Under the pieces are notes generated by a model. That model was not told where the DNA came from, made no database searches, and was given only the letters and a program-made list of their open reading frames with translations. Shown piece by piece: positions 42,974 through 58,546 of a stretch of DNA of 64,000 bases; within the stretch, counting starts at the first letter, position 1; each line of letters starts with the position of its first letter. The position numbers were made by a program, and so were the translations under genes. Source of the DNA: Limnochordia bacterium (lineage in GTDB: Bacteria; Bacillota; Limnochordia; DUMW01); the NCBI GenBank assembly GCA_023230925.1, contig JALNWK010000006.1, forward strand, positions 3,515 to 67,514. The letters run 5' to 3'.

Positions 42974-44334
42974 ATAATCTTCTGAAGCTGTTTACGGGAT
43001 GCTTCCTACTGATGATTCTAGCTGGGGGGTTCTTCCAAGTGCTCTGGGCCCCTTCCTTGGCAACGTCGGTGGGCAATCCTCGGGTACAGTTGGCCCGGGA
43101 ACAGATTCTTCGGGGAGGTATTTTCGATTATTCTGGGCGTGCCCTGGCACTGCCCGGTGACCACCAGATGCGTTACGTAGGCCCTATTTCCTTGGCTGCC
43201 ATTGTTGGGTACAGTGATCTCATTTTGGGACAGAGCGGCTTAGAGAAAGCCTATGATCGGGTCTTACTAGGACTGGATGGACTATCGTTCTACCTTTACC
43301 AGTGGCGGGTTCATCAAGGTCAGAGTCATTACGGGGGTCACATCATTACGACGATTGATTACGCGATGCAGCGGATTGCCGAAGAGGCCTTGGGCCAAAG
43401 GAAGGGTGCGGTGGTGATACTAGAGCCTAAAAGTGGTGCTATTAGAGCTTTGGTCTCCTTCCCGAGTTTTGATCCAAATCGGGTCTATGAAAAATGGTCG
43501 TTCCTCAGGGATGACAAAGACGCACCTCTACTACATCGAGCAGTCCAAGGGCTTTATCCTCCTGGTTCGGTTTTTAAGATGCTGATCTTGGCTGCCGCCT
43601 TGGAGGAAGGAGGAGTGCGGCTGGATACCACGTATATAGATCAAGGGGAGTTCAGGGTGGAGGGTTATCGACTAACAAATGCCTATACCACCCAACCGGG
43701 GCCGATTACTCTTATGCAGGCCTTTGCTAATTCCTCGAATGTGATCTTTGCACAATTGGCCTTGGAACTAGGAGAAAACAAGTTATTTGACTATGTAGAC
43801 AGGTTTGGTTTTGGTAACCTGCAGGGTCTACGGGTTGCCACCTCCCCGGCGAGGATCTTTCCGCCGGGTTCCAAAGCTGAGCTTGTGCAATTTGCCATTG
43901 GACAAGGTAACCAGTTGGTTACCCCTTTGGACATTGCGGTACTGACGGCGACAATTGCCACCGGTGGCCTACAATTCAAAGCCTTCTTGGTGCAAGAACT
44001 GGTTGATTCGTTTGGCGGAAGAAGACAACATGTAAAAGCTATGCCAGAACGGGTACTGAGTAGCTTCACCTCATACCAAGTTACACGGGCGATGCTCGGG
44101 GTGGTTGAGAATGGTACTGGAACAAGGGCCCAAGTCAAGGGAGTAAGTATTGCTGGAAAAACCGGAAGTGCTGAGAACCCCCATGGGAAACCCCACGCGT
44201 GGTTTACCTGTTTTGCACCAGCGGATGATCCGCAACTGGTTGTTACAGTCATTGTGGAGAATGCCGGGTCCGGTGGCCAGGTGGCTGCACCCATCGCCCA
44301 GGAGATCCTTGGGAGACTACTAGGTGGGGGATGA
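42907..44334 (+). CDS. class B penicillin-binding protein (PbpA-like transpeptidase)
   Basis: PBP dimerisation plus transpeptidase domains with SVFK (SxxK), SSN and KTGSA (KTG) motifs. The start is uncertain; GTG at 42955 gives less overlap with the upstream gene. Confidence 0.8.
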   Translation: MVGPWFDRGDTKTKEAVPIRSLNNLLKLFTGCFLLMILAGGFFQVLWAPSLATSVGNPRVQLAREQILRGGIFDYSGRALALPGDHQMRYVGPISLAAIVGYSDLILGQSGLEKAYDRVLLGLDGLSFYLYQWRVHQGQSHYGGHIITTIDYAMQRIAEEALGQRKGAVVILEPKSGAIRALVSFPSFDPNRVYEKWSFLRDDKDAPLLHRAVQGLYPPGSVFKMLILAAALEEGGVRLDTTYIDQGEFRVEGYRLTNAYTTQPGPITLMQAFANSSNVIFAQLALELGENKLFDYVDRFGFGNLQGLRVATSPARIFPPGSKAELVQFAIGQGNQLVTPLDIAVLTATIATGGLQFKAFLVQELVDSFGGRRQHVKAMPERVLSSFTSYQVTRAMLGVVENGTGTRAQVKGVSIAGKTGSAENPHGKPHAWFTCFAPADDPQLVVTVIVENAGSGGQVAAPIAQEILGRLLGGG

Positions 44335-44373
44335 GGAATATTCCTGTTTGTTGTATAATGTTGAAGGTAAGGG

Positions 44374-46389
44374 GTGGATGAATTGCTGGGAAGAGTCCTT
44401 GCTGACCGATACGAAATCGTTCAAGAAGTTGGATCCGGCGGAATGGCCGTGGTATACCTGGGCCAAGATCGCCTGCTCTGTCGACCTGTGGCTATTAAGA
44501 TTCTACGGGACGTCCATGCCAAAGATGAGGATTTCGTCCGTCGTTTTCGCCTCGAGGCCCAAGCGGCAGCCAGTCTTTCCCATCCTAATGTGGTTAATAT
44601 GTACGATGTTGGCGAGGAAAATGGTATTTACTACATCGTGATGGAATACCTGAATGGGACGGATCTTAAGACTCTGATTAGACAGTATGGGCAGTTTTCC
44701 GTTGGCCAGGGACTCTGGGTAGCGGCAGAGATAGCAAAGGCGTTGGAGCATGCTCATTCCCATAAGATCGTGCATAGGGACATTAAACCCCATAACATAA
44801 TTCTGACTAATGATGGTCGGATTAAGGTAACCGATTTTGGTATTGCCCGGGCCGTGAGTAGCTCTACCTTGACCCAAACAGGTTTTGTTCTCGGCTCTGT
44901 TCACTATTCATCCCCCGAGCAGGTCAGTGGTGGTCAGATTAGTGGGGCATCGGATCTGTATTCCTTGGGTGTGGTAATGTACGAAATGTTCACCGGTAGA
45001 TTACCCTTTGGGGGCGAAACCCCGGTGAGTATTGCTCTGAAACATCTGCGAGATCAGCCACCGTCCCTTAGAGAGTTGCGTGGGGATCTACCCGATGGAG
45101 TGGCATTGATTGTTGAGACGGCTATGGCAAAGGAGCCCAAAGATCGATATCCCAGTGCAGCAAGATTGTTACAGGCGATTCAAAAGACCGGGATGATGTC
45201 TTTGGGGTTTGCCTCGGAAGAAGCGCCGGAGCAGACGGCATTAATGGAAACAACGAAGGTCCTCGCCAGTGTAAATGGGGAGGAACTAGAACCGACGGAG
45301 ATGGTACCCGTTCAGCAAAAGAAAAAACGTTCTACAGGAGCTAGGTTTTTGACTGTTGTTGCAGTGCTCTTGGCCATAGGTGGGCTATCATGGGTAGGCT
45401 TGTTGCAGGCCCGAAAGATGATCTTCCCACCGGATTTGCCGGTTCCTGAGGTTTCCGGCCGTTCCCTAGAGGAGGCCAGTGAGATATTATCGGAGATGGG
45501 GTTTAAACCCAGTGTCGATGGACGAGTCTTTAGTCATGATGTGCCCGAAGGATGGGTAGTATCACAGAACCCCGTTGAAGGAAGAATCGTGAAGAAATGG
45601 CGAACAGTTGAACTGATTGTCAGTAAGGGCCCCCAGATGGTAGAGGTGCCAAATATTGTCGGATATTCTTTGCGGGATGCCGCATTGATGTTAGATGAAC
45701 AAGGTCTAAAGCTAGGTGTTCCCGAGGAGGAGATCAATGAACAGGCCGCAATAGATGAAGTCCTATTCCAGGAGCCGTCATCGGGCAGTGTTCCTGTAGG
45801 AAGTAGTATTAATGTAGTTATCGCCGTTCGGCAGAAGTCTACGGTTCTTTTGGTCCCTGATATCCGAGGATCATATCTGGACCAGGCGCAAAAGGACCTT
45901 GCAGAGTACGGGTTGTCCATTGGAAAAAGTTTTCCTGATTTCTCTGACGAAATCCCCCAAGGGATGATCATCGATCAGAACCCCCGACCCCAGGCTTCAG
46001 TACAAAAAGGGACCGCCATCGATGTAGTCTACAGTAACGGACCAAGGAATAGGCAAGAACCTAGGGAAGATGAAACAGGTGTTGGTACTCCACCAGTTCC
46101 ACCTGTAGGTGAGCTTGAACCCGGGGAGGATACAGATGCCCAAACGCCACCGGAAGCACCAAATGATGGGCAAAAGAGGGCGACAATATCCATTAGGGTA
46201 CCCGATGGGCCGCCCCAGGAGGTCTTGATTTTGGTGGTCGATGATATTCGGGTGGGGATTAAGCAAGTGATGCAGGCCATGGTGGATGGGGGCGAGACGA
46301 TTACCCGGGTGGTGGTTGGGTATGGTCCTGAAGTAAGGGTGCAAGTCTATTTGGGTGGTTGGTTAATCGAAGAGGAATACCTAAGGTAA
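44374..46389 (+). CDS. PASTA-domain Ser/Thr protein kinase (PknB/PrkC-like)
   Basis: Hanks kinase motifs (GSGGMAVVY, AIK, HRDIKPHNI, DFGIA). TM segment, three PASTA repeats and a C-terminal Pro-rich linker plus a small beta-domain. Confidence 0.9.
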   Translation: MDELLGRVLADRYEIVQEVGSGGMAVVYLGQDRLLCRPVAIKILRDVHAKDEDFVRRFRLEAQAAASLSHPNVVNMYDVGEENGIYYIVMEYLNGTDLKTLIRQYGQFSVGQGLWVAAEIAKALEHAHSHKIVHRDIKPHNIILTNDGRIKVTDFGIARAVSSSTLTQTGFVLGSVHYSSPEQVSGGQISGASDLYSLGVVMYEMFTGRLPFGGETPVSIALKHLRDQPPSLRELRGDLPDGVALIVETAMAKEPKDRYPSAARLLQAIQKTGMMSLGFASEEAPEQTALMETTKVLASVNGEELEPTEMVPVQQKKKRSTGARFLTVVAVLLAIGGLSWVGLLQARKMIFPPDLPVPEVSGRSLEEASEILSEMGFKPSVDGRVFSHDVPEGWVVSQNPVEGRIVKKWRTVELIVSKGPQMVEVPNIVGYSLRDAALMLDEQGLKLGVPEEEINEQAAIDEVLFQEPSSGSVPVGSSINVVIAVRQKSTVLLVPDIRGSYLDQAQKDLAEYGLSIGKSFPDFSDEIPQGMIIDQNPRPQASVQKGTAIDVVYSNGPRNRQEPREDETGVGTPPVPPVGELEPGEDTDAQTPPEAPNDGQKRATISIRVPDGPPQEVLILVVDDIRVGIKQVMQAMVDGGETITRVVVGYGPEVRVQVYLGGWLIEEEYLR

Positions 46390-46426: not shown

Positions 46427-47308
46427 ATGCAAAAAGGCATTGTGATAAGGGCTATTGGTGGCTACTACTTTGTGCAAACGGAGCAAGGGCAAGTGTATCA
46501 GTGTTTGCTTCGGGGGAAGCTCAAACGGCAACACCAACGGATCCTGGTGGGTGATTGGGTGCATGCGCGGCCTACTTCCTCGTCCGAAGGGGTGATTGAG
46601 GAGGTTTTACCGCGGCGGCTGGAACTGTCTCGTCCACCGGTGGCCAATCTTGATATTTTGGTTGTTGTCAATTCTGTGGTCCATCCAAGTGTGAATTTAG
46701 TTCTTCTAGATCGGATCCTACTAGCTGCACGGCAACAAGGGCTGAGGTGTATTCTCTGCTGGAATAAGGTAGATCTAGAACAGGAAGATCCACAGTTATC
46801 GGGGTATATTCAGGCTTACTTGCAGCAAGGGTATGATTGTGTTAGAACCAGTGCGCTTACCGGAGAAGGAATAGACAGATTGATTGAGCTTCTATCGGGA
46901 TCTATGGCTGTTTTGACTGGTGATTCGGGAGTTGGAAAATCTGCCTTGCTCAATCGAGTACTAGGCCAAACGGTTCAGGAAGAAGGTGACATTAGCCAAC
47001 GGCTGAAGCGGGGTCGTCATACCACTAGGGAGGTTGTATTGTATCCCTTGGGTAATGGCGGGTTTATTGCCGATACACCGGGCTTTACTAGGATGCCGTT
47101 GGTTGGTGTTGAACCAGTTGTTTTAGAAGATTTCTTTTTCCGAGAGTATTTTTCCGGTTGTTACTACTCCGATTGCCGTCATCGAAATGAACCTGAATGC
47201 GCGGTAAAGGAAGCAGTTGCCAAAGGGGATATTCCGTCTTGGCGTTACGATAATTATCTGTTCCTTTTGGATGAGCTTGTTGACAGCCAAGAAGGGCAGT
47301 GGAAATGA
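46427..47308 (+). CDS. rsgA: ribosome small-subunit-dependent GTPase A (RsgA/CpgA/YloQ)
   Basis: OB-fold N-terminus, circularly permuted GTPase (NKVDL...GDSGVGKSAL) and a C-terminal zinc finger (C..C.H..EP.C). Confidence 0.85.
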   Translation: MQKGIVIRAIGGYYFVQTEQGQVYQCLLRGKLKRQHQRILVGDWVHARPTSSSEGVIEEVLPRRLELSRPPVANLDILVVVNSVVHPSVNLVLLDRILLAARQQGLRCILCWNKVDLEQEDPQLSGYIQAYLQQGYDCVRTSALTGEGIDRLIELLSGSMAVLTGDSGVGKSALLNRVLGQTVQEEGDISQRLKRGRHTTREVVLYPLGNGGFIADTPGFTRMPLVGVEPVVLEDFFFREYFSGCYYSDCRHRNEPECAVKEAVAKGDIPSWRYDNYLFLLDELVDSQEGQWK

Positions 47309-47318
47309 GGTAGAAACC

Positions 47319-47978
47319 TTGGTGAAAATAGCGCCTTCAATCTTGGCGGCTGATTTCGCCCATTTGGCGGAGGATGTTGCCAAGATTAGCAATGCAGATA
47401 TGCTCCATGTGGATATTATGGACGGTTCCTTTGTTCCTAATTTGACGATTGGCCCACCGGTGGTATCTGCCTTACGAAAGACTACGGACTTGGCCTTTGA
47501 CTGTCATCTGATGGTCAGTAACTGTGATGTATTGTTAGAGCCCCTCGCTGCAGCGGGAGCTGACTATGTTACTGTCCATGCCGAGGCCTGTGTCCATTTG
47601 CACCGTACGTTGATGTATATTAAGAAACTAGGGATGGGTTGTGGTGTTGCTCTTAACCCCTCAACACCGTTAACGAGTATCGAGTGGGTGTTGGATTTAC
47701 TTGATCTGGTCCTGATTATGACTGTCAACCCCGGTTTTGGCGGACAGAGCTTTATAACCCGTTCAGTGGAGAAGATTGCACGGCTCCAGGAGGAAATAAA
47801 GGTTCGAGGTCTGAAAACCCTGATTGCGGTGGATGGGGGAATCAACTTAGAGACGGCACCGGTAGTACATAGGGCCGGAGCAGACGTTCTGATCGCTGGT
47901 TCTTACGTTTTTTCTAGCCCTGATCCAGCGCTGGCGGTAGAACAATTACGGGCGGTGACGGATAAAGTGGGTAAATAG
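47319..47978 (+). CDS. rpe: ribulose-phosphate 3-epimerase
   Basis: VKIAPSILAADFA N-terminus, HVDIMDG and VNPGFGGQ motifs. TTG at 47319 after a GAGGT RBS. The track ORF is over-extended to 47217. Confidence 0.85.
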   Translation: MVKIAPSILAADFAHLAEDVAKISNADMLHVDIMDGSFVPNLTIGPPVVSALRKTTDLAFDCHLMVSNCDVLLEPLAAAGADYVTVHAEACVHLHRTLMYIKKLGMGCGVALNPSTPLTSIEWVLDLLDLVLIMTVNPGFGGQSFITRSVEKIARLQEEIKVRGLKTLIAVDGGINLETAPVVHRAGADVLIAGSYVFSSPDPALAVEQLRAVTDKVGK

Positions 47979-48028: not shown

Positions 48029-48054
48029 AACGTCCCGAAAGGGGCGTTTTCTTC
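48029..48054 (+). terminator. rho-independent terminator after rpe
   Basis: ACGTCCC-GAAA-GGGGCGT stem-loop followed by a TTTCTTC tract. Confidence 0.5.
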
Positions 48055-48095
48055 ATGCAATCTGGTACAGCAGAGCTAAACCCCAGATTAAGTAT

Positions 48096-48124
48096 TTGCA
48101 TACAGGGTGTAGAGGGGGTATAAT
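48096..48124 (+). promoter_or_regulatory. strong sigma-A promoter upstream of the Tad/Flp locus
   Basis: TTGCAT (48096-48101), exactly 17 nt, then TATAAT (48119-48124). Sits about 65 nt upstream of the first Flp pilin start. Confidence 0.6.
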
Positions 48125-48188
48125 AGGGTCGGACGTTGGACAGACTCACCTAATATACGGGCAGCCGTCCCAAGGGAGGGGAGGTGAT

Positions 48189-48341
48189 ATGGGGTCTTTT
48201 GGTGACAAGGGTCAGGCGGCAGCCGAATTTGCACTGCTGGCTGCCGCGTTGGCTACGGCATTGCTGCTAGTTAATCAACAGTTTACCCAAGCTCTCAATT
48301 TGTACTTTCAGAAGTTGTTTTATTTGCTTCAGCTTTCTTAG
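48189..48341 (+). CDS. Flp/Fap-family pilin (variant 1)
   Basis: 50 aa. GGGAGGGGAGGTG RBS then ATG. Leader MGSFGDKG, then QAAAEFALLAAALATALLLV, a Flp-like G/xxxxEF(Y) processing motif plus a hydrophobic helix. The track ORF starts inside the promoter and is rejected as over-extended. Confidence 0.55.
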   Translation: MGSFGDKGQAAAEFALLAAALATALLLVNQQFTQALNLYFQKLFYLLQLS

Positions 48342-48422
48342 CCTTGCGTATTTGAGCTGCGGGGTGAAAGGGGTGATGAATCGGTAGATAACCCAGCAGT
48401 ATCAAGGAGGAGGTGTTCATGC

Positions 48423-48596
48423 TTGCAGAAAAACGTAAGGCGGTTGTTCCAAGACGAAACAGGGCAAAGCATGGCCGAATATGGTCTGCTTACCGCTCTG
48501 ATTGCCGTTGTCACCATTGCAGCGGTAAAGGCAATTGGTACAAGCATTAGTACCAAGTTCAATACACTAGCACAAGAAATTTCAGGTACACCATAA
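48423..48596 (+). CDS. flp: Flp-family pilin (canonical)
   Basis: TTG start 8 nt after an AAGGAGGAGGTG RBS. 57 aa, MQKNVRRLFQDETG / QSMAEYGLLTALIAVVTIAAV. Classic Flp prepilin G/xxxAEYGLL motif. Confidence 0.7.
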   Translation: MQKNVRRLFQDETGQSMAEYGLLTALIAVVTIAAVKAIGTSISTKFNTLAQEISGTP

Positions 48597-48710
48597 TATC
48601 TAACTCCCAGTTGGAGTGGGAGGCTTTCCGGCATAAACATGGATTGATTGCGTAGATTTGCAGGGAGAAGGCCAGGGGAATCCCTGGCCCATCCTTTTTG
48701 GAGGGGTTTT

Positions 48711-49193
48711 ATGGTCCCGAAGATCATTAACACTAGCTTGATATTGGGGCTGCTCTATAGCAGTTATACGGACTATCGGACGAACCGAATTTATAATATC
48801 GTTACCATACCCTTAATTGGGTTCGGTTTTGCAGCAAACAGCATTTACTATGGGTTCACTGGTTTGGTTTCTTCTTTGCTAGGATGTTTACTGTCTTCAG
48901 CACCCCTCTTCATTGCTTTTCTGCTAGGTGGTCTCGGTGGCGGTGATGTGAAACTAATGGCGGCCGTTGGTGCGTTAAAGGGCATAGACTTCGGTATTCT
49001 GGCCTTGTTTTTCACCGTGACCGTAGGGGCATTGTGGGCGTTAGTTCTTTTAGCCAAACATGGGGAATTGGGTTCCTTGATCCAGCGGCTTGTAACAGGA
49101 AGGTTAACAGACTGCTCGTCCAAGCTCACCCTTCCCTATGGAATAGCTATTACCTGTGGCTCTTTGCTGGCCCTGGGAGTATCTTGGCTATGA
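48711..49193 (+). CDS. prepilin peptidase CpaA/TadV (A24 family)
   Basis: Multi-TM protein with D...YRTNRIYN and the second catalytic Asp motif GGGDVKLMAAVGALKG. Start at the ATG at 48711, with GGAGGGG upstream. Confidence 0.75.
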   Translation: MVPKIINTSLILGLLYSSYTDYRTNRIYNIVTIPLIGFGFAANSIYYGFTGLVSSLLGCLLSSAPLFIAFLLGGLGGGDVKLMAAVGALKGIDFGILALFFTVTVGALWALVLLAKHGELGSLIQRLVTGRLTDCSSKLTLPYGIAITCGSLLALGVSWL

Positions 49194-49220
49194 AAGAGGC
49201 CAGACAAAGGAGGGGAAAAC

Positions 49221-49604
49221 ATGATAGACCTTAGTTGTGACCGGGGTCAAGTTCTACTGGAGGCGGCGATTGTGTTACCCTTGCTATTGCTAGTCACGAC
49301 AGGGATTATTTACCTGGCCATTGTGTTTAACGACGGGTTAGTTCATCGTTATATTACTTTTGATGCCGTTCGTGAGGCTGCTGTTGCGGGGGGTGTTGAG
49401 TTTTATGCACAGAACTTATACACAGCCCATAGTTTGCTTATGTTTCGGGGCGGTGCCCAACTGGACTTTGCGGTGGAGAACAACCAGGTAGCTGGCCAAG
49501 GGACTCTCTACCGATACTTGCAGTTTCCTGTTTTCCTACGCAAGGTTCCCGCTGCTTTGTTCCGTACCAAGTATCGGTTAACATGTAGTCCCAGAACTAA
49601 CTAA
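49221..49604 (+). CDS. TadE-like pseudopilin
   Basis: N-terminal RGQVLLEAAIVLPLLLLV, the TadE/TadG G-Q...E signature with a hydrophobic helix. Confidence 0.65.
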   Translation: MIDLSCDRGQVLLEAAIVLPLLLLVTTGIIYLAIVFNDGLVHRYITFDAVREAAVAGGVEFYAQNLYTAHSLLMFRGGAQLDFAVENNQVAGQGTLYRYLQFPVFLRKVPAALFRTKYRLTCSPRTN

Positions 49605-49780
49605 GGGGTCATCTACTAACGGGCTATTTCCCATCCTGAGAGCAAGTACCCTGGGCACACAAAGCGAAGGTGCAGGTTCTTTGCCCGGTAGATTAACATC
49701 ATGGATTCCTCTTTTGACGATGGGTATGACCTCTATTCCATCTAAAATATAGTCAGCATTTATGCTATCGCGCTAAGGAG

Positions 49781-50536
49781 GTGATGGGCCTATTGTTTGA
49801 TTCCGCCGGAAGGTGGAATCGTGGCCCAGTTTGTATGAGTAAATTACATCGAAGGGAGAAGCAGGCACTAACCCAAAACCGAAAGTCATCTGTGTTCCCC
49901 CAGTGTCAAAGCGGTCAAGCGGGCATTATGGTTGCTTTGATTCTAGCTGTGGCTGTGCTGTGTGCTGCAGCTGTTTCCCACACCGGGGAGCTGACCTTGG
50001 CCAAAATGCAAGCACAGATTGCAGCGGATGCAGGCGCACAAACCGCGGCGGCAGTTCTAGCCGATGGATTGAATACCGTGGCAATTACCAATGTCATTTT
50101 GGTGGGAGGAACCCTTTTGGTGCCGATCACCGAGGGATTAAGCGGTGCATTAGCACGGGGTGCCCATGTGGCCCAGCAAGTTGCGGTCAACACAACACCC
50201 GCGCTTAGTATTACCCTTGGAGAAACTGCTGCCTTTAATAGCGGAGCCGATTTTGCCGTCCCAACGGTGCTACCGGAGATGCATCTACAACGGGCGGCAT
50301 TGGGATACGAGGATCTGCTATCATACCAGGATAAAAACGTTCGACATGTCGGCTTTGCAGCCATGAAGGAACCGAAAAGTATTGCCAGTGGTTTTGCGGG
50401 TAACTTGGTGGATAAATGGAAGAAGGCATCAATGATTTCCTACGCCAAAGGCGTAGTGATTTGGGATGGCTTCGGTTTGGAGATGATCCGGTCCTTTATA
50501 CCCGCTTACGAAGCAGGCTTGACGACTAATCTTTAG
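49781..50536 (+). CDS. TadG-like / pilus assembly protein
   Basis: SGQAGIMVALILAVAVL N-terminal helix, then an Ala/Thr-rich extracellular domain. AAGGAGG RBS before the ATG at 49784. Confidence 0.5.
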   Translation: MMGLLFDSAGRWNRGPVCMSKLHRREKQALTQNRKSSVFPQCQSGQAGIMVALILAVAVLCAAAVSHTGELTLAKMQAQIAADAGAQTAAAVLADGLNTVAITNVILVGGTLLVPITEGLSGALARGAHVAQQVAVNTTPALSITLGETAAFNSGADFAVPTVLPEMHLQRAALGYEDLLSYQDKNVRHVGFAAMKEPKSIASGFAGNLVDKWKKASMISYAKGVVIWDGFGLEMIRSFIPAYEAGLTTNL

Positions 50537-50552
50537 AAAGTGAGGACTCTGG

Positions 50553-50939
50553 ATGGATAGTGAAAGGGGACAAGCTTTGCTAGAAATGGCTGTGCTCCTA
50601 CCCCTGCTGTTGGGTCTTTTCTTTGCCATCGCCCAAGTTGGGCTATTGTACAACACTAAGCAACTAATGTATATGGCGGCCCACCATGGCGCGTTGGTAG
50701 CAGCCTCAGGTGGTGATGGAGTATTTGAGGCCAGGGACTTGCTGCTAGAAAACGGCATTCATGAAAACCGGATTAGTCGGGTTGAAGAGCAACGGAATGG
50801 GAACCTAGTTACCTTGACTATCCAGTGTTCAGTTCCTCCGCTATTTGGACTTGAACCCTTCGGACAAAGAGAACACATCCTTACCGCACAGGTAACCATG
50901 GGCCAACAACTCATCCCCCGTATTCCGGGGGATGGTTGA
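50553..50939 (+). CDS. TadE/TadF-like pseudopilin
   Basis: ERGQALLEMAVLLPLLLGLFF N-terminal signature. Confidence 0.65.
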   Translation: MDSERGQALLEMAVLLPLLLGLFFAIAQVGLLYNTKQLMYMAAHHGALVAASGGDGVFEARDLLLENGIHENRISRVEEQRNGNLVTLTIQCSVPPLFGLEPFGQREHILTAQVTMGQQLIPRIPGDG

Positions 50940-50994
50940 TGGGACAATCCAGGAAGTCTTCTACCTGTAAATTATGTTTTAGGAGAGTGAGAAC

Positions 50995-51609
50995 TTGCAG
51001 TATTTACGGGTCTTCGCAGTGGTCGGTATGGTCTTGGGCCTCCCATCGACTGTCTGTGCCCAATCATACATATATGCCGATGCCGAGACTACAATCTCCT
51101 GGCTGACCAAAACCATTGAGTCGCCCCAGGAGCTCAGTGATATCCTACATTGGCTTTTTCATCGGTTTAGCTCGGATGATGTGTTGCTATCTCTGTGCCC
51201 CGTTAATGCTTCCTTGGAACTTCAGATATTGGCAAAGACCTCAGCATCATCGGTCTCATTGGAAGTCCCCCTGCCGGCGGATAGTAGGTTGCTTGCCATT
51301 TTACGTTCTGTGGGGCAGGGATACCTAGTTGAGACCATGGCCTTCTATACCCCTTGGTCACCTAGCAAAGTGGCTGAGTTTTACCAGATGGGACTGGTCG
51401 AATCCGGATGGAGTCCGGTGTACAACCTGCGTCACACTGATGGAATGATCCCTAGGAGAGTCTTATCCTTTGTGAAGGGATCAGAGGGGAGGTACATCAT
51501 GATTGATGAGGGTATTGATCCTTTAACTTTCGTACAGCTAGTTTGCTACCGAGTAGTGACCAGTCAGTATGATGCGGTATTCAAAGGAGGGATGAGTCAT
51601 GCACAATAA
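50995..51609 (+). CDS. secreted protein of unknown function within the Tad locus
   Basis: Signal peptide (VFAVVGMVLGLPSTVCAQS). No recognisable family. TTG start with a GGAGAGTGAG RBS. Confidence 0.4.
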   Translation: MQYLRVFAVVGMVLGLPSTVCAQSYIYADAETTISWLTKTIESPQELSDILHWLFHRFSSDDVLLSLCPVNASLELQILAKTSASSVSLEVPLPADSRLLAILRSVGQGYLVETMAFYTPWSPSKVAEFYQMGLVESGWSPVYNLRHTDGMIPRRVLSFVKGSEGRYIMIDEGIDPLTFVQLVCYRVVTSQYDAVFKGGMSHAQ

Positions 51610-52456
51610 GCGTCGTTTCCTGATTGCCTTGGCACTGGCGATCTTGGCGGCATTGTTTGCCGTTCGACACTTGCAGGCAGTTGAAACGCGGAAAATACTA
51701 GGCAACCAATCCGGTCGAGCGATCGTGACCGTAAAACCAGTATCCAAGGGGACTAAGATCACGCCGGATGTGATAGCCTATCTACCCATAGCCGAGGAGT
51801 TGATTCCTGCAAACGCGTTCATTGATGTAGAGACAATCCTGGGACGAACAACAGCAAGGGATCTACCCAAAGGAAGCCTGTTGCTAGAAGAACACTTGAT
51901 TACGGGGCGAACCCTAGCACAACGCTTAGCTGGTTCCTTGTATGGTTTTACTCTATCTGTGGATGAGCGAAATGCCATCGCTGGTTTGCTACGTCCAGGA
52001 GACTATGTGGATGTAATCAGTGTCCTTGCTGGGCGCGCCCTTACTGGAGCAGCAAGTGTCACCGTATTACGCCAGGTTCCGGTCATGGCTGTTAACGGTG
52101 TCCTAGGAGGGGATAGTCTGACATCGGGAACCGGACGAACAACGGTCACCCTTGGCCTTTCTTTGCACGAGGCCCAGACGTTGGCCTTATTCGAAGAGTA
52201 TAGCACATTGAGGTTGATCCTGTGTTCCGAACTAGGGGATGGCGGCACAGGTTCAGTAGAACCAACTGAATTGGAGCAGGTTCTATCCCAACAGGGTATC
52301 AACCTCAGGGATGAATTTTCTACCGACACAACGGACTGGAACAGTCTATTACAGGGAATTAGTTGGCCTGGTACTTCCACCATAGTTGATGGTTCACTAG
52401 GTACCGGTGGAGAGGTCATCCGGGGAACTACTGTGGAAAGACGAGATCTTAACTAG
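51599..52456 (+). CDS. cpaB: Flp pilus assembly protein CpaB/RcpC (SAF domain)
   Basis: N-terminal TM, then a SAF/RcpC domain (RAIVTVKPVSKGTKITPDVI...LPKGSLLL..). AAAGGAGG RBS. Confidence 0.75.
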   Translation: MHNKRRFLIALALAILAALFAVRHLQAVETRKILGNQSGRAIVTVKPVSKGTKITPDVIAYLPIAEELIPANAFIDVETILGRTTARDLPKGSLLLEEHLITGRTLAQRLAGSLYGFTLSVDERNAIAGLLRPGDYVDVISVLAGRALTGAASVTVLRQVPVMAVNGVLGGDSLTSGTGRTTVTLGLSLHEAQTLALFEEYSTLRLILCSELGDGGTGSVEPTELEQVLSQQGINLRDEFSTDTTDWNSLLQGISWPGTSTIVDGSLGTGGEVIRGTTVERRDLN

Positions 52457-52479
52457 AAATGACTGGAAGGAGTAGATAG

Positions 52480-53643
52480 ATGCGCAAACTAATACAGGCA
52501 ATCATCGTTGGTTTACTGGTGGTGGGTTTGGTCAGTCTTTGCAGTGGTGAAGTCATTAGTGTCGCAGAGCATTGCTCCCTTGTGATACCAGGTAGTAGGT
52601 TAGAACGGGTAGCTGTGGGAAATCCCCGGGTGGCTGATGTGCAGCTGATCAGTTCCACCGAGTTTTTGGTTAATGGCAAGAGCCCCGGGAGAACTAACAT
52701 CTTAGTGTGGGACGAGGATGAAGTAAGAGAGTATACCGTGTATGTGACCACAAATGATGAGCAACTCCCGGAGGAATGGTTTGAGGAAGTCGGTCAACAA
52801 CTCCATCGATGGGGAATCGATCTAAGAAAAGTCGGCCCGGTGGCGATACTGGAGGGGGAGACGGCAACCGCAGCACAGCTAGCCGCTGCCGAGCATATTA
52901 CAAGCCGACTTTTTGATGATGTGGCCAGTCTAGTAAGGTTGTCTACAGATGAGACTCCTGTATTTGACGACTACAGCCAGATCCAGTTAATCACTTATAT
53001 TGTTGAGCTAAGCGAAGGGTCCCTGCGAACCCTGGGTATCGATTGGCAAAGGACCATTGCCTCTGATGAGTTTGGTTTGCTTAATCTAGCTAGTGTTGCT
53101 CAATTAAGTGCATTGATCAACAAGATCGAAATGATGGAGCAGACCGGCAAGGCTTCAATACTTGCCAATCCTGTTCTGCTGGTAACCAGCGGGAAACCAG
53201 CGCGTTTTCTGGCCGGGGGGCAAGTGCCTATCCCCGTCGAAAGCGGCGAGAACCTACAGATTCAATGGAAGGAATACGGGGTTTCGGTCCAGGTTACAGC
53301 CAGGATAGAGGAGGATACGATTGTGATCAAGATTGAGCCGGAGGTGAGCTCCCTTGATTGGGCCAATGCGGTAAACACCAAGGGTGGTACCATACCTGCC
53401 TTGCGTACCCGGAGCTTGTATACCGAAGTGCGAATGCTTCCCCATGAAACCCTAGTGTTAGGCGGTCTTTTCATTCAGGAAGAAGCTAAAAGTCACGATA
53501 AGGTACCTTTGCTAGGAAGCTTGCCGTTGCTTGGTGGACTGTTTAGGACATCCTCCATTGAAAAAAGAAACACGGAACTAGTAATCCTGCTCTCAGCATT
53601 TCCAAAAACGAAAGGTCTAGGGAGAGTGAGCAGTCTTGACTAG
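52480..53643 (+). CDS. cpaC: secretin (CpaC/RcpA, type II/III secretion system secretin family)
   Basis: Signal peptide. The C-terminal secretin domain ends in the hallmark VPLLGSLPLLGGLFRTSSIEKRNTELVILLSAFP. N-terminal BON/secretin-N like region. Confidence 0.8.
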   Translation: MRKLIQAIIVGLLVVGLVSLCSGEVISVAEHCSLVIPGSRLERVAVGNPRVADVQLISSTEFLVNGKSPGRTNILVWDEDEVREYTVYVTTNDEQLPEEWFEEVGQQLHRWGIDLRKVGPVAILEGETATAAQLAAAEHITSRLFDDVASLVRLSTDETPVFDDYSQIQLITYIVELSEGSLRTLGIDWQRTIASDEFGLLNLASVAQLSALINKIEMMEQTGKASILANPVLLVTSGKPARFLAGGQVPIPVESGENLQIQWKEYGVSVQVTARIEEDTIVIKIEPEVSSLDWANAVNTKGGTIPALRTRSLYTEVRMLPHETLVLGGLFIQEEAKSHDKVPLLGSLPLLGGLFRTSSIEKRNTELVILLSAFPKTKGLGRVSSLD

Positions 53644-55648
53644 AGATAAACCACTGATTTTCGCTGTGACGGGGGCCAAAGGCGGGGTAGGTTGCACTCA
53701 TCTTGCCACCCAGTTGGCACAATCCTTTGCTTTGGCTGGCAAGAGCACTGTGATCTGTGATCTAAACTGGCGGACGGGAGGGGATGTTCATCTATTTCTT
53801 GGTACCCCGATAGAAACCTCTGTCTACGACTGGCTGCAGACCAAACAGACCGGGAGACGCTCTAGCATCAGTGCCTACTTACAGCTTCATGAAAGTGGGT
53901 TGCAGGTTCTGGCAACACCATCCTTCGGCATGAAAATCGGGTACGGACAGGATGTATGTGAGCTTGCTTCCGCTTTGACTCCCTTAGCTGAAGTGGTCGT
54001 ATTTGATTGTGGTACGGCGCTAGATGAAGTCACGATGTCTGCGATGGATGCTGCGGATGTCGTCTTGTTAGCAACTACCGGTGATGTTGTTGCTTTGGAG
54101 AATCTGCTAAACCGGATTGAACGCTTACGGGAGTTGCAGTACGTGCAGGATCGGTTTCGTCTGGTTTTGAATGAACGATCCCGCCTCGAGATTTCTTTCT
54201 CTGAGATGAAGGCGCTTCTGGGTGGTGAGTTCTATGGGATTATACCTGAGGGACTTTCGGAAGCCTTCATGGCAATCAGGGAAATCGCGGAGCGTCTATG
54301 GAGTGAACACGTCGATGGGGTCCTTTTTCCCCAGATAGAAAAGAAGGAGTCCTTCTTTTCTAGATTGGTTCCGAAATTGAGGATACGGTCGCCCAAAAAG
54401 CAGGAAGAGCCACCGATTGAGGAATCCGTAGATGCGATTGGTCTCAGGAAGATCAAAATCGAGGTACATCAACAACTCATGGACCGAATCGATATCAGGA
54501 AGATTGACCTTGCTCCCGATACAGGAGAAAACTTGCGTAAACAGGTGGAGCAGCACGTTACAGATATCTTATCCGGATACCGCCAGCTAAAAAACAACCG
54601 GCCCCTCCGGTTAACCTTGGTCAAAGAGATCGTCAATGAGGTATTGGGGCTAGGTCATCTTGAAGAGTTCTTACAGGATCCTGAGGTAACAGAGATTATG
54701 GTCAATGGAGCTGAACAGGTTTACGTGGAAAGAAGGGGAAGGATCGAGTTGACTGATCGTACCTTCATTAATGATGCCCAAGTCCTACAGATCCTAGAGC
54801 GGATCCTCGCACCTTTAGGTCGCCGGATTGATGAAAGCTCCCCCATGGTAGATGCCCGGCTGCCCGATGGTTCTCGGGTCAATGCGGTTATTCCGCCCTT
54901 AGCTGTCGATTGTCCAACATTGACGATCCGTAAGTTTGAGGTAGTACCTTTTACGATGAAGGACCTAGTGCTGAAAGGAACCATTGATAGACAAACAGCT
55001 GACATCGTCAGTGAGGCCGTCAGAGCCAAGAGGAACATTATCATCTCAGGGGGCACAGGTTCAGGGAAGACTACGTTGCTCAATGTGCTTTCGGACTTCA
55101 TTGGTAGGGATGAGCGGATTATTACCATCGAGGATGCTGCGGAGTTGCGACTAAAACAGGCCCATGTGATTCGTCTAGAGGCTAGACCCGCTAACATTGA
55201 AGGAAAAGGCGAGGTCGCCATTAGGGATTTGGTACGTAATGCGCTGCGCATGCGACCTGATCGGATTATTGTTGGAGAGGTCCGGGGTGGTGAAGCTTTG
55301 GATATGCTCCAAGCTATGAATACAGGACACAAGGGCTCATTAAGCACCATCCATGCAAACTCGCCAAGGGATGCCATTTCCAGGCTAGAGACCATGGTCC
55401 TTATGGCCGATGTGGACCTTCCCCTTGGGGCCATTCGCAATCAGATCGCCTCAGCGATTGACCTAATCATCCATATGAGCCGCCAAAGTGATGGTTCCCG
55501 GCGGGTAATTAGTATGGCACAGATTAAGGGAATAAGGGAGGGAGAGATCGTCCTAGGTGATCTACTCAGAACCCCGGCAAAGGCTTCTGAGGAGTACGAA
55601 GGCCCTCATTCTCAAGCTGTCTCTGCGGTGGGAGATATCGGAGGCTAG
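53636..55648 (+). CDS. fused CpaE/TadZ-like ParA/MinD ATPase and CpaF/TadA secretion ATPase
   Basis: Residues 1-250 form a deviant Walker A MinD/ParA domain (VTGAKGGVGCTHLA). Residues about 270-670 form a T2SSE/VirB11-like ATPase (Walker A GGTGSGKTT, Asp box, Walker B, His box). A single 670-aa ORF with a Lys/Pro-rich linker. Confidence 0.75.
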   Translation: MTRDKPLIFAVTGAKGGVGCTHLATQLAQSFALAGKSTVICDLNWRTGGDVHLFLGTPIETSVYDWLQTKQTGRRSSISAYLQLHESGLQVLATPSFGMKIGYGQDVCELASALTPLAEVVVFDCGTALDEVTMSAMDAADVVLLATTGDVVALENLLNRIERLRELQYVQDRFRLVLNERSRLEISFSEMKALLGGEFYGIIPEGLSEAFMAIREIAERLWSEHVDGVLFPQIEKKESFFSRLVPKLRIRSPKKQEEPPIEESVDAIGLRKIKIEVHQQLMDRIDIRKIDLAPDTGENLRKQVEQHVTDILSGYRQLKNNRPLRLTLVKEIVNEVLGLGHLEEFLQDPEVTEIMVNGAEQVYVERRGRIELTDRTFINDAQVLQILERILAPLGRRIDESSPMVDARLPDGSRVNAVIPPLAVDCPTLTIRKFEVVPFTMKDLVLKGTIDRQTADIVSEAVRAKRNIIISGGTGSGKTTLLNVLSDFIGRDERIITIEDAAELRLKQAHVIRLEARPANIEGKGEVAIRDLVRNALRMRPDRIIVGEVRGGEALDMLQAMNTGHKGSLSTIHANSPRDAISRLETMVLMADVDLPLGAIRNQIASAIDLIIHMSRQSDGSRRVISMAQIKGIREGEIVLGDLLRTPAKASEEYEGPHSQAVSAVGDIGG

Positions 55649-55704
55649 TCTGAGATTAGTCAAATTCAATGTTTCTTCCTAAACGAGAAAAGGAGGTGGT
55701 GATC

Positions 55705-56487
55705 ATGATTGTCATTGTGGCTGGTCTTGTGTTCGGCGCGGTTTTTCTGGCGACTTCCAGTGGTTGGCCCTATCTTGAACGTATCTGGCGGTGGATACAA
55801 CCCTTAGGTAAAAACCCCCTTTTCCTTGGATTAGGGGTGTTTCTGGTGGTGTATGCACTACGGGGCAGTATTAGTCTAGGTCTGTTGCTTTCATTGAGTA
55901 TTGTTAGCGCAGTAAAGGTAAAATCGATGTACTTGCGAAGACGCCGTTTTCATGCATTGGATAGTCAGTTAGCCGATGGTCTTCTGTTATTGTCAAACGG
56001 CCTCAAAGCAGGTTTTAGTCTACGCCAAGCCCTGGAGATGGTGGGGCGGGAAATGGCAGATCCCTTGGGAGCTGAGATACGGGTGCTGGTCCATGAACTG
56101 GACCTAGGAATTTCGTTGCCCGAGGCCATGCGCCGTTTTTCTATTTCAGCGGAGCATCCAGATGTAGAGCTGGCTGTTACCGCTATTCTTGTACAGCGGG
56201 TGACTGGGGGCAATTTGGCCGTAGCCTTAGAGCGGATCGCCGGTACGATAAATGAACGTAGGCGGTTAGTCGGTAAGGTGCGGGCTATGACAAGCCAAGG
56301 CCGCCTTACAGGGGTGATTATTTCCTTGATGCCTGTAGTCTTGATGCTATTGCTTTTGCTCATCGCTCCGGACTTTGTGGCACCGCTGCTCTTTACTACC
56401 CAAGGGCGCTTACTGCTCACTCTAGGGGCCATGATGCAAGCCATCGGAGCGTTGTTGGTATGGCGGATTTGCTCTGTGGAATTGTAG
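55705..56487 (+). CDS. tadB: Flp pilus assembly membrane protein TadB (T2SS-F family)
   Basis: T2SSF domain membrane protein. ATG at 55705 after an AAAGGAGGTGGTG RBS. Confidence 0.75.
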   Translation: MIVIVAGLVFGAVFLATSSGWPYLERIWRWIQPLGKNPLFLGLGVFLVVYALRGSISLGLLLSLSIVSAVKVKSMYLRRRRFHALDSQLADGLLLLSNGLKAGFSLRQALEMVGREMADPLGAEIRVLVHELDLGISLPEAMRRFSISAEHPDVELAVTAILVQRVTGGNLAVALERIAGTINERRRLVGKVRAMTSQGRLTGVIISLMPVVLMLLLLLIAPDFVAPLLFTTQGRLLLTLGAMMQAIGALLVWRICSVEL

Positions 56488-56576
56488 TGGAACGTCAATG
56501 GAATAGAAAGGGTTCTATTTAGTGAGCGAGTATTCCTATAGAAAGGCGGTGTGGCGACCTTTGGTCGCTTAATTCT

Positions 56577-57434
56577 ATGCAGGTTATCCTGGTTGGTATT
56601 TTAGTCGGTTCTGCTGTATTCTTTGCGGTTGCGGGAATACTACCCTCGGAGCAAAGAACCAGAAGACTTCTCAATTGCAAGCAGCAAGAGACTGTCTATG
56701 GTCATCTGAAGACACCATGGCGTGTTCTACTGGAGATCGTCTGCGGGATGGGGCGGCTCTGTCGGCATATACTTCCTAAAAGCTACCTAGGCAAATGTCA
56801 GGATTTATTAATAATGGCAGGAGAACCCTTGGGGATTGATGTATACTGCGGACTTGGTGTTGTTGTACTATGCTTAGCCATGGGTTTTGGCCTGGCAGCA
56901 TCAAATTGGATGGTTACCTTCTTTGCTATTATTCTAGGGTTAGTCTCCATGCGGATATGGCTTGTGGCCATGGTTCGGCGCAGAAGAAACTGCATATCCC
57001 GGACACTACCCTTTGCTTTGGATCTCTTAACCATCTGTGGAGAGGCGGGACTCGGTTTTGATAGTGCATTGTCCCGCTATGTGGAAAGCAGCGACGAGGG
57101 ACCACTTAGGGAAGAGTTTGTGGGACTCCTCCAAGATATGCGGTCGGGAAAGTCACGGTATCAGGCGTTGAAGGATTTTGCCGAGCGACTAAAAAGTCCT
57201 GAGATAGACTCCTTTTGCCTGACGATGATGCAGGCTGATCAACTAGGGACTAGTATTGGCACTGTGTTGCGGATGCTGGCAGATCAAACTAGAACACGCA
57301 GGAGTCAGCAAATAGAAGGTCTAGCCATGCGGGCGCCTGTTAAGATGCTATTTCCCCTATTATTCTTCGTCTTTCCTGCGGTTTTCATCGTCTTCTTTGG
57401 TCCTATTTTGCTAAATGGTCTTTTCCTTACCTGA
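56577..57434 (+). CDS. tadC: Flp pilus assembly membrane protein TadC (T2SS-F family)
   Basis: Second T2SSF-domain membrane protein, immediately after tadB. Confidence 0.7.
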   Translation: MQVILVGILVGSAVFFAVAGILPSEQRTRRLLNCKQQETVYGHLKTPWRVLLEIVCGMGRLCRHILPKSYLGKCQDLLIMAGEPLGIDVYCGLGVVVLCLAMGFGLAASNWMVTFFAIILGLVSMRIWLVAMVRRRRNCISRTLPFALDLLTICGEAGLGFDSALSRYVESSDEGPLREEFVGLLQDMRSGKSRYQALKDFAERLKSPEIDSFCLTMMQADQLGTSIGTVLRMLADQTRTRRSQQIEGLAMRAPVKMLFPLLFFVFPAVFIVFFGPILLNGLFLT

Positions 57435-57675: not shown

Positions 57676-58320
57676 ATGGACTATGCTGATTATTCCGTGG
57701 TTTTGACCAACGGGACGGTTTCCGATTTGACGTTTTACCGACCGTTCTTGGAGGAGGCAAATTTTATCATTGCCGCAGATGGGGGAGCTACTATCGCAAC
57801 AAGGTTAGGCGTGCGCCCATCGGTGCTTATTGGTGACTTTGATTCCCTTCCTGAAGAGGACCAAGACGTTCTTTCAGCTCAGGAGGTAAAGGTGATTAGG
57901 TATCCGGTCCATAAAGATAAGACAGATAGTCACTTGGCTGTTGAGTATGCTCTGAAACTATCACCAAGGAACATTATTATACTGGGGCCCTTGAGGGGCC
58001 GGCTTGATCATACTCTAGCTAATGTGGGCCTATTGTTTTTGATTCGCTCGGCTGGGAAAAAGGGTTATCTTGTGGATGAGACTAACTTCTGTCAGCTGAG
58101 TGGAAGTGAATGTTGGATTACAGGAAATATTGGACAGTTGGTATCTCTAATTCCTTTGTCCGAGGAGGTCAAAGGAGTATCTACTATTGGGTTGGGTTAT
58201 CCTTTAACGGGTTCTACGTTAAGGCGATGTGATTCCCTGGGGGTAAGTAACTTTCTTGTCGAGGCACAGGCACGGGTTGCGGTAACTAGTGGTGACTTGC
58301 TCATTGTCCAGGTTCGATAA
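57676..58320 (+). CDS. thiN: thiamine pyrophosphokinase
   Basis: VVLTNGTVSDLTFY...FIIAADGGA...LIGDFDSL TPK catalytic motifs. Same position as B. subtilis thiN (yloS) after rpe. Confidence 0.85.
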   Translation: MDYADYSVVLTNGTVSDLTFYRPFLEEANFIIAADGGATIATRLGVRPSVLIGDFDSLPEEDQDVLSAQEVKVIRYPVHKDKTDSHLAVEYALKLSPRNIIILGPLRGRLDHTLANVGLLFLIRSAGKKGYLVDETNFCQLSGSECWITGNIGQLVSLIPLSEEVKGVSTIGLGYPLTGSTLRRCDSLGVSNFLVEAQARVAVTSGDLLIVQVR

Positions 58321-58387: not shown

Positions 58388-58546
58388 ATGCCAAAGAAGT
58401 GTAAAGATTGCGGCGCCGAGAGCCCAAACTGGGAGACTACATGCAAAAGCTGTGGAGCGGATTTTCCACCGTTGCTGAAGCAGGTTGAACCGGAGAAGAA
58501 GAAAAAAGGTCTGTTTGGTAAGCTATTCGGCAAAAAGGACGAATGA
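58388..58546 (+). CDS. small zinc-ribbon protein with Lys-rich amphipathic tail
   Basis: 52 aa, CKDCGAESPNWETTCKSCGA, a 2xCxxC zinc ribbon, then KKKKGLFGKLFGKKDE. GGAAGGGGGAAGG RBS. Confidence 0.5.
   Translation: MPKKCKDCGAESPNWETTCKSCGADFPPLLKQVEPEKKKKGLFGKLFGKKDE

Follow-up and report, generated by a model that had tools for sequence, protein, structure and literature searches.

A predicted diderm-type Tad pilus operon between rpe and thiN in an uncultured Limnochordia bacterium

The genes rpe and thiN are neighbors in Bacillus, and in the bacterium described here the same two genes are separated by a 9.3 kb locus encoding a Tad/Flp pilus. The placement of an adhesion locus within the conserved ylo region raises the questions of whether it is a recent arrival or a long-standing part of the chromosome, and whether it encodes a complete and working pilus. 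Gene calls, profile matches and comparisons with related loci, all centered on a 64-kb stretch of DNA (the window, to which the coordinates below refer), point to a Tad (tight adherence, type IVc) pilus operon of the diderm type that is functional, inherited with the chromosome of an uncultured Limnochordia bacterium and placed at an old, lineage-wide position, a reading to which we give a probability of roughly 85%.

Gene content of the locus

The locus spans coordinates 48096–57434 and contains 12 genes, all on the plus strand, as are the flanking genes and the expression signals described below. They encode two Flp pilins, TadV, two TadE proteins, a TadG-like protein, a 204-residue orphan, CpaB, an RcpA/CpaC secretin, a fused TadZ/CpaE-CpaF protein, TadB and TadC. 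A complete Tad/Flp locus between rpe and thiN had been proposed from the letters of the sequence and their open reading frames (the sequence-only reading), and all of the genes it listed are recovered by gene calls and domain matches. Every gene of the operon is intact and under purifying selection, with pN far below pS, as it is in the flanks. To the left is rpe (ribulose-phosphate 3-epimerase; 47271–47978), with a 251-bit match to Pfam Ribul_P_3_epim and an ambiguous start (47217, 47271 or 47319), and rsgA also lies upstream of the locus. To the right is thiN (thiamine pyrophosphokinase; 57676–58320), which matches Pfam TPK_catalytic (100 bits) and TPK_B1_binding (44 bits).

The first gene, flp1 (48189–48341), encodes a divergent 50-residue Flp-type prepilin with the cleavage motif G|QAAAEF, and its match to Pfam Flp_Fap (25 bits) is under the 32.2-bit cutoff. 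The gene and its motif are nonetheless kept in L002, L070 and L078, making four lineages with the window, and pN is 0.17 compared with a pS of 0.71. The second gene, flp2 (48423–48596), has a TTG start and encodes a canonical Flp prepilin of 57 residues with the motif G|QSMAEY and a 41-bit match to the same family (cutoff 32.2); its core GQ[SG]MAEYGLLTALIA is invariant across the four lineages. The prepilin peptidase gene tadV/cpaA (48711–49193; 160 aa) has a GGGD motif and matches Pfam Peptidase_A24 (64 bits), and the product is a short A24 peptidase with no additional domain. Gene calls place its true start at the ATG at 48711 rather than at 48648, behind the ribosome binding site GGAGGGG. 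Three pseudopilin genes follow. Two encode TadE-like proteins, the first (49221–49604) with the motif G|QVLLE and a Pfam TadE score of 25 bits against a cutoff of 22.9, and the second (50553–50939) with the motif G|QALLE and a score of 36 bits. Between them is a TadG-like gene (49784–50536; start ambiguous at 49781, 49784 or 49835) with the motif G|QAGIM; this assignment is weak, as the product scores 15.9 bits to PF13400, under the 22.3-bit cutoff, while the L070 orthologue reaches 26 bits against the same cutoff and an N-terminal BLASTP match has E=8e-5.

The next gene (50995–51609) encodes a secreted protein of 204 residues with an N-terminal signal-like segment and no family match, searches of Pfam, NCBIfam and PHROG all coming back empty. 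An exhaustive phmmer search of 1.84 billion representatives returned five matches, one of which, a eukaryotic fn3-repeat protein, we judged uninformative. The pN/pS ratio of the orphan is about 0.2, and AlphaFold2 gives a pLDDT of 47 from a three-sequence alignment. In one of the two clades of relatives discussed below (clade B) a protein of 265–271 residues, also unassigned, occupies the same position, with no detectable homology to the 204-residue orphan.

The remaining genes encode the machinery. The cpaB/rcpC gene (51599–52456) begins within the last 11 nt of the preceding gene, and its product has an equivalog-level match to TIGR03177 (113 bits, cutoff 71) together with the Pfam domains RcpC and SAF. 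The Tad secretin of the RcpA/CpaC type (52480–53643; 387 aa) matches Pfam Secretin (132 bits) and T2SS-T3SS_pil_N (58 bits), and its best match in the PDB is RcpA (8odn; 136 bits). It is followed, with an 8-nt overlap, by a gene (53636–55648) that fuses a TadZ/CpaE-like ParA/MinD domain to a CpaF/TadA ATPase in a single 670-residue product (Pfam T2SSE 223 bits, AAA_31 34 bits). The sequence-only reading listed 'CpaE-CpaF', and both domains are present in one open reading frame. The ParA/MinD domain covers residues ~8–205, has the Walker A motif KGGVGCT, a 26-bit match to CbiA and no receiver-like domain; at 38 bits this TadZ/CpaE part is below the NCBIfam cutoff of 154 for CpaE homologues, and the Walker A motif of TadZ is described as atypical (PMC6668835). 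The ATPase part covers residues ~300–645, has the Walker A motif GGTGSGKT, and matches CpaF in the PDB (9e24/8rkd) with 363 bits over residues 299–645. The fusion is kept in L002, L003, L070 and L078; an apparent split in L002, where a 378-residue gene had been called, was rejected as it reflects start-codon choice only and the full fused frame is open. The platform proteins TadB (55705–56487) and TadC (56577–57434) match Pfam T2SSF with 66 and 76 bits.

The locus thus holds what defines a Tad/Flp (type IVc) system: a prepilin, TadV, CpaF/TadA, TadB with TadC, a TadZ/CpaE domain, RcpC/CpaB, a secretin and pseudopilins of the TadE/G types. The pilotin TadD and the RcpB/CpaD lipoproteins are present in model systems and are not universal, and neither has a family match in Pfam or NCBIfam among the proteins of this locus. 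The sole TPR protein in the window (23391–24155) lacks a lipobox cysteine and was for that reason discounted as a possible TadD.

The rpe/thiN junction in relatives

The same 12-gene order is found at the rpe/thiN junction in L002, L003, L070, L072 and L078, and at seven further metagenome loci. The flanking proteins of some of these relatives are about 68% identical to those of the window and of others about 43–48%, the relatives forming two deeply diverged clades (A and B), and the Tad proteins diverge in step with the flanking proteins. GC content is 0.47–0.51 in locus and flanks alike, and at the locus we found neither integrase nor transposase genes, no tRNA gene next to it and no direct repeats on its two sides; the window's only tRNA is at 38466–38543. 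Because the position is shared by relatives, the GC content resembles that of the flanks and signatures of mobility are absent, we interpret the location as an old inherited arrangement. The idea that the locus is instead a recent, horizontally acquired adhesion island in the conserved ylo region draws on the 9.3 kb of extra DNA after rpe, relative both to the Bacillus-type order and to L076, and on the frequent horizontal movement of Tad systems (Denise et al., PMC6668835). None of the marks of a genomic island is seen, however: composition is not deviant, there are no signs of mobility, and the locus is already at this site in the nearest sampled relatives, as well as in those at 43–48% flank identity with a matching Tad divergence. 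This explanation is largely refuted and we regard it as very improbable. The sequence-only reading had presented the locus as a notable insertion, and while it does lie between two genes that are adjacent in Bacillus, the inherited position takes away its standing as a striking one. The same reading had named in advance an ancestral arrangement in relatives as the observation that would speak against it, and the junction comparison finds just that, the same locus at the same site.

The distribution of the locus is patchy. L073/L074, another metagenome-assembled genome with the Limnochordia label, and L076 do not have a Tad locus at the junction; in L073/L074 an aminotransferase gene and a C39 peptidase gene are there instead, and in L076 the order is rsgA-rpe-...-rpmB. 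Two small open reading frames after rpe in L076 were considered as pilin relics and rejected, as they are not Flp-like. The locus is thus absent from the junction in some genomes that are equally distant, and the two Tad-positive clades, A and B, are at least as far from one another as from the Tad-negative genomes. The length of the secretin also differs strongly between the clades (387 aa versus 979–998 aa). A scan of genome contigs anchored on Rpe gave, among the matches listed, distant phyla only, which reflect conserved motifs or chance and say nothing about this lineage.

This patchiness, the different cargo of L073/L074, the relationship of the two clades and the disparity of their secretins could all be accounted for if the junction were prone to recombination and the locus had been acquired or replaced there several times over, each time independently. 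We consider this quite unlikely, as the two clades have an identical 12-gene order that includes the two pilin paralogues, the position of the unassigned gene and the TadZ-CpaF fusion, and the divergence of the flanks is tracked by that of the Tad proteins. The comparisons indicate that the operon has long stood between rpe and thiN across the lineage and was not inserted recently, its distribution being patchy and its site fixed, and from them we infer a single ancestral presence followed by losses.

Expression signals around the pilin genes

Transcription of rpe is predicted to end at an intrinsic terminator found by a hairpin scan (48029–48058; AACGTCCC-GAAA-GGGGCGTT followed by TTCTTC), and L002 has the equivalent hairpin together with a T-run. 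Shortly beyond it, a sigma-70-type promoter-like site (48095–48124; 10 of 12 matches) has a perfect TATAAT, and its -35 element may be either TTTGCA with an 18-nt spacer or TTGCAT with a 17-nt spacer, with 3–4 of the 6 consensus positions. L002, L070 and L078 have promoter-like sites at the corresponding position. The description of this site as a consensus sigma-A promoter is thus apt for the -10 hexamer but too generous for the -35. We note that the region is not enriched over shuffled sequence in promoter-like sites (11 versus 12.0) or terminator-like sites (13 versus 10.5).

Two stem-loops lie between flp2 and tadV. The one previously proposed as terminator-like, CTCCCA and TGGGAG around a 7-nt loop (48604–48622), exists, but it is the weaker of the two, with a 6-bp stem of -9.9 kcal/mol that is followed by GCUUUCC and no U-run, which disqualifies it as a Rho-independent terminator, and it is kept in L002 only. 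The second, GGCCAGGG-GAAT-CCCTGGCC followed by CATCCTTTTT (48670–48699), is the top-ranked terminator-like site, with a stem of 8 bp (7 of them GC) and -17.7 kcal/mol, and UUUUU begins 5 nt past the stem at 48670–48689. All four lineages have a stem-loop following flp2: L002 shares the stem of the window, and L070 and L078 have different strong stems there. Because the U-run is confined to the window lineage, conservation does not support termination over stabilization of the RNA, and the stem-loop at 48670–48699, lying between the pilin genes and tadV, is likely to be either an attenuator or an mRNA-stabilizing element. The earlier suggestion that a post-pilin stem-loop could raise expression of the pilins relative to the machinery is reasonable, with this element the stronger of the two. 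In Rfam, neither the whole window nor the pilin leader and spacer nor the clade B spacer matched a known RNA family, be it a riboswitch for c-di-GMP or one of another kind.

A pilin gene in first place followed by a stem-loop is also a feature of the model diderm Tad loci. For the tad locus of Aggregatibacter actinomycetemcomitans, Kram et al. in 2008 reportedly described a 'termination cascade', a precedent for the post-pilin stem-loop.

Host envelope, pilus assembly and known Tad systems

The secretin and RsgA of the window are 100% identical to proteins labelled 'Limnochordia bacterium' (GCA_028686625.1 and GCA_028705855.1), the label being the depositors' taxonomy. Limnochordia are a class of Firmicutes with an outer membrane, as electron microscopy and marker genes attest, and because of that membrane a CpaC secretin is expected here. 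A Spo0A homologue is encoded within the 64-kb window and a SASP gene is nearby. Given the Limnochordia label and the diderm class, the host is not a Bacillus-like monoderm spore-former. One might still suppose that the host is effectively monoderm and that the secretin is a relic or works elsewhere, for example in the outer membrane of a forespore, as the sporulation genes and the failure to find any outer-membrane biogenesis gene (Bam, Lpx, Lpt, OmpM) in the window would allow. We regard this as extremely improbable given the label on the contig, the outer membranes of the class, the purifying selection on the secretin (pN 0.20 versus pS 0.79) and its apparent translational coupling to the ATPase gene through the 8-nt overlap. 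A literature search found no useful reports on pili of Limnochorda pilosa.

A working of the diderm-type Tad pilus can be proposed from homology. Transcription would start at the sigma-70-like promoter just past the rpe terminator, and the two Flp prepilins would be made in excess because the stable stem-loop downstream of flp2 either ends part of the transcription or stabilizes a short pilin transcript. TadV would cut the prepilins and the TadE and TadG-like pseudopilins after the conserved glycine, and a CpaF hexamer, carrying an N-terminal TadZ/CpaE-like scaffold with a degenerate Walker A motif, would drive assembly on the TadB/TadC platform. CpaB would connect the complex in the inner membrane with the RcpA/CpaC secretin, through which the pilus would pass the Limnochordia outer membrane.

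The locus shares with the flp-tad-rcp genes of A. actinomycetemcomitans, pilA-cpa of Caulobacter crescentus and flp-rcp-tad of Pseudomonas aeruginosa the Flp motif G|xxxxEY, TadV/CpaA, pseudopilins of the TadE/F/G types, RcpC/CpaB, the RcpA/CpaC secretin, CpaF and split TadB and TadC. It departs from the model diderm loci in the fusion of TadZ/CpaE to the N-terminus of CpaF without a receiver-like domain, in having neither the TadD pilotin nor RcpB/CpaD, in the orphan secreted protein encoded upstream of cpaB, and in the placing of the pseudopilin genes, which precede the machinery genes instead of closing the locus. In a more speculative account the operon is a vertically inherited relic of a diderm ancestor, lost in Tad-negative relatives, and its machine was remodelled for a membrane without TadD/RcpB-type lipoproteins, the orphan being a new factor for secretin assembly or alignment and the TadZ-CpaF fusion replacing a free polar hub. 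We hold this to be doubtful, although if it were true the junction could mark envelope evolution in the Firmicutes.

Tad loci of the monoderm type in Firmicutes and Actinobacteria, such as that of Bifidobacterium breve and the secretin-less loci that the comparison also recovered, resemble the locus in a close Flp2-type pilin, in CpaF (about 55–61% identity) and in the order CpaB, CpaE, CpaF, TadB, TadC, but have no secretin and are not beside rpe. Tad systems with secretins have been described in the diderm Firmicutes Halanaerobiales and Negativicutes (Denise et al. 2019, PMC6668835), which are alike in being outer-membrane hosts that keep the secretin. Limnochordia, a third diderm class of Firmicutes outside that statement, would join the lineages that keep a secretin-dependent Tad pilus, and a fixed rpe/thiN position is not described there. 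The Tad operon is an ordinary inherited trait of its lineage and leaves the general view of Tad pili unchanged; what retains some interest is the orphan component, the lack of known pilotins and a distribution that is patchy yet fixed in site. Finally, a biogas metagenome-assembled genome, GSMM966 (PMC9347119), resembles the window in habitat (anaerobic digesters) and in a Tad gene set that includes cpaC, for which a role in biofilms was proposed from a KEGG-level listing with no analysis of synteny or regulation. The chromosomal address of the Limnochordia operon is stable in abundant, uncultured digester bacteria, which bears on biofilm formation in reactors.

Gene content of the Tad locus

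ORF listing and profile searches show 12 contiguous same-strand genes from the end of rpe (47978) to the start of thiN (57676), and confirm the complete Tad operon (48096-57434, +) that the sequence-only reading had spotted and itemised between them. Flp1 (50 aa; Pfam Flp 25 bits, under the 32-bit cutoff) and Flp2 (57 aa; 41 bits) carry the readable prepilin motifs G↓QAAAEF and G↓QSMAEY, and they are accompanied by an A24 prepilin peptidase (160 aa) with a readable GGGD motif and by two TadE-domain proteins with prepilin motifs G↓QVLLE and G↓QALLE. The sole match of the 250-aa TadG-like protein is sub-threshold (PF13400 'Tad', 15.9 bits), but the orthologue of a distant relative, with which it shares N-terminal similarity (E=8e-5), scores above threshold (26 bits). 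TIGR03177 identifies CpaB (113 bits, cutoff 71). The locus also encodes two T2SSF platform proteins and a secretin of 387 aa (Secretin 132 bits, T2SS-T3SS_pil_N 58 bits), for which the nearest solved structure is the Tad secretin RcpA (8odn). It has every core defining feature of a diderm Tad system except TadD and RcpB/CpaD, both absent from it.

The predicted CpaE-CpaF pair is present as domains, although these are fused: one ORF of 670 aa encodes a ParA/MinD-like domain followed by a CpaF ATPase (T2SSE 223 bits; 363 bits to a PDB CpaF). Walker A, as read in the sequence, is intact in the CpaF half (GGTGSGKT) and degenerate in the TadZ-like half (KGGVGCT), in keeping with the atypical Walker A described for TadZ (PMC6668835). 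Such a fusion is not unusual, since proteins of about 700 aa bearing both domains are found in many phyla. The TadZ-like motif is degenerate by a different route in each of two clades of relatives, with Cys replacing the P-loop Lys in the window clade (KGGVGCT; window 53636-53720) and Arg replacing the signature Lys in the second (GRGGVGKT; L070 10001-10100). The 700-aa fused ATPase of L070 also occurs alone, without other Tad genes and in a completely unrelated context, in a 1.7 Mb record (GCA_900198705.1, FZPS01000123.1) that appears to be a chimera or a concatenation of assemblies. The secretins likewise fall into two length classes, 387-389 aa in the window clade (window 52480-53643) and 979-998 aa in the second (L070 6969-9965; L078 7026-9965), the latter with additional sequence between the N-terminal and secretin domains and a faint BON match.

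The secreted protein encoded before cpaB (204 aa) begins with a signal-like segment and matches no family, and its AlphaFold model is unusable. It is lineage-specific, with only five matches among 1.84 billion representatives. Overlaps of 11 nt between its gene and cpaB, and of 8 nt between the secretin and ATPase genes, suggest that each pair is translationally coupled.

A probably inherited position between rpe and thiN

The gene order in Bacillus is cpgA-rpe-thiN-rpmB, and in one relative (L076) it is rsgA-rpe-two small ORFs-rpmB, so that the window has extra DNA after rpe relative to both. To this extent the locus is inserted, as had been claimed, but the insertion is not recent. Its GC content is that of the flanks, and no mobility genes, nearby tRNA or flanking repeats were found at the locus. 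Comparison of the junction across relatives, which the sequence-only reading had proposed, finds the same 12-gene order at the same site in L002 (GCA_012839765.1) and L003, the closest relatives sampled (flank proteins 67-75% identical), and in L070/L072 and L078 (GCA_012798695.1; 40-48%), which form a second, deep clade with Bacillus-like downstream synteny (yuaJ-thiN-rpmB-asp23-dak2-degV). The divergence of the Tad proteins parallels that of the flanking proteins: most are 53-82% identical to those of L002 (37% for the 204-aa protein), and those still detectable in L070 are 25-47% identical. In every Tad gene pN is far below pS, as in rsgA, rpe and thiN.

In metagenomes, a scan for the invariant Flp2 core gave seven more contigs in which rpe immediately precedes the pilin genes; rsgA is also kept upstream in four of these, all four of which encode a secretin. 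None of about 25 other Flp2-type loci reaching the machinery genes has a secretin or an upstream rpe, and five other secretin-bearing loci also lack rpe upstream. The distribution is patchy though fixed in site, because at this junction a further MAG with the Limnochordia label (L073/L074) carries genes for an aminotransferase and a C39 peptidase and L076 is nearly empty, and the RsgA and Rpe pairwise identities between the two Tad-positive clades do not exceed those with these Tad-negative relatives. This pattern could reflect repeated acquisition at a permissive junction, but we consider that improbable given that both clades share an identical gene order, the TadZ-CpaF fusion, a pair of pilin paralogues and the site, and that their Tad proteins co-diverge with the flanks, all of which favour a single old acquisition followed by losses. 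The placement, previously judged notable, was inherited and is ordinary for a diderm Firmicute, the same locus occupying the same site in relatives.

Promoter-like sites and stem-loops

A clear rpe terminator (48029-48058) precedes a promoter-like site (48095-48124) with a perfect TATAAT; the description of this as a consensus sigma-A promoter is too strong, because the -35 matches at just 3-4 of 6 positions. Promoter-like and terminator-like sites are no commoner in this region than in shuffled sequence, and these carry weight by position and conservation: L002, L070 and L078 also have a promoter-like site between rpe and flp1, preceded in L002 by a clear rpe terminator and in the other two by a hairpin and T run. 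The motif ACTCACC recurs slightly 3' of the -10 of the flp promoter (window 48144-48150; L070 ~2480; L078 ~2460) and may represent an operator, a leader element or chance.

The hairpin previously described as terminator-like after the pilins (48604-48622) exists but is weak (6 bp, -9.9 kcal/mol, without a U-run). A far stronger stem-loop (48670-48689; 8 bp, seven of them GC, -17.7 kcal/mol), followed by CAUCCUUUUU, lies immediately 5' of the tadV ribosome-binding site. The stem, though not the loop, is shared by L002, and at the equivalent place L070 and L078 form stems that are unrelated and stronger still, so that a structured element following the pilin genes is conserved; among these four, a U-run follows only in the window lineage. 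The stem-loop matches no Rfam family, and may act in transcription termination or else in stabilisation of the pilin transcript. The flp2-tadV spacer (ACCTCTTCAGGGCATGGCTGGTGAT...CATACCTGGGTTAGGATGAC) is near-identical over about 60 nt in L070 (2945-3010) and L078 (2947-3010) even though their RsgA proteins are only 67% identical; it too lacks an Rfam match, and may be a cis-regulatory RNA of second-clade Tad operons.

The gap between tadE1 and the TadG-like gene is unusually long (180-230 nt; 49605-49834), and the start codon of the latter is ambiguous (49781, 49784 or 49835). The gap contains a promoter-like site (ATGACC, 16-nt spacer, TATAGT; 49726-49753), which is not conserved, as the L002 gap is only ~40 nt.

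Host envelope and neighbouring genes

The window is identical to part of a 69.5-kb contig from run SRR6484323, and its secretin and RsgA are identical to proteins filed in NCBI as 'Limnochordia bacterium' (GCA_028686625.1, GCA_028705855.1). Limnochordia are among three Firmicute lineages having a lipopolysaccharide outer membrane, according to marker genes (Taib et al. 2020, as cited elsewhere), and the membrane has been seen by electron microscopy in cultured members (PMC11456536); no outer-membrane biogenesis genes were found within the 64-kb window. Tad systems with secretins, as here, were earlier reported in Halanaerobiales and Negativicutes (PMC6668835). A Tad gene set that includes cpaC has also been listed, at KEGG level and with a suggested function in biofilms, for an anaerobic-digester MAG (GSMM966; PMC9347119). 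A Spo0A homologue (36052-36897, +; Response_reg and Spo0A_C, 99 bits) lies between rsmB and rlmN, with another at the same position in a second Limnochordia MAG (L073 673-1455), and the SRR6484323 contig has a SASP gene just downstream, beyond the window edge. A diderm Firmicute therefore carries regulators of the sporulation lineage, and such a host explains both the spore-former-like context and the secretin.

Directly upstream of rsgA and rpe, within the Firmicute ylo region, is a cluster (39731-46389, +) encoding FhaA(FHA), FHA, PP2C, RodA/FtsW, PBP transpeptidase and PASTA Ser/Thr kinase proteins; it is also found in L074, and its order is similar to that of the fhaA-fhaB-pstP-rodA-pbpA-pknB genes of actinobacteria. 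A 506-aa ORF (36890-38410, -), which adjoins the sole tRNA in the window (tRNA-Pro, 38466-38543, -) and has no Pfam or PHROG match, breaks a series of housekeeping genes that otherwise lie on the + strand. A small protein (21882-22322, +) scores right on the Pfam cutoff (26.7 bits) for a PARP catalytic domain, and a SecB-like protein (22701-23180, +; 28 bits against a cutoff of 26) adjoins a TPR protein. Directly downstream of thiN, a 52-aa zinc-ribbon ORF (CxxC...CxxC; 58388-58546, +) without family assignment is 83% identical in L002 and L003.
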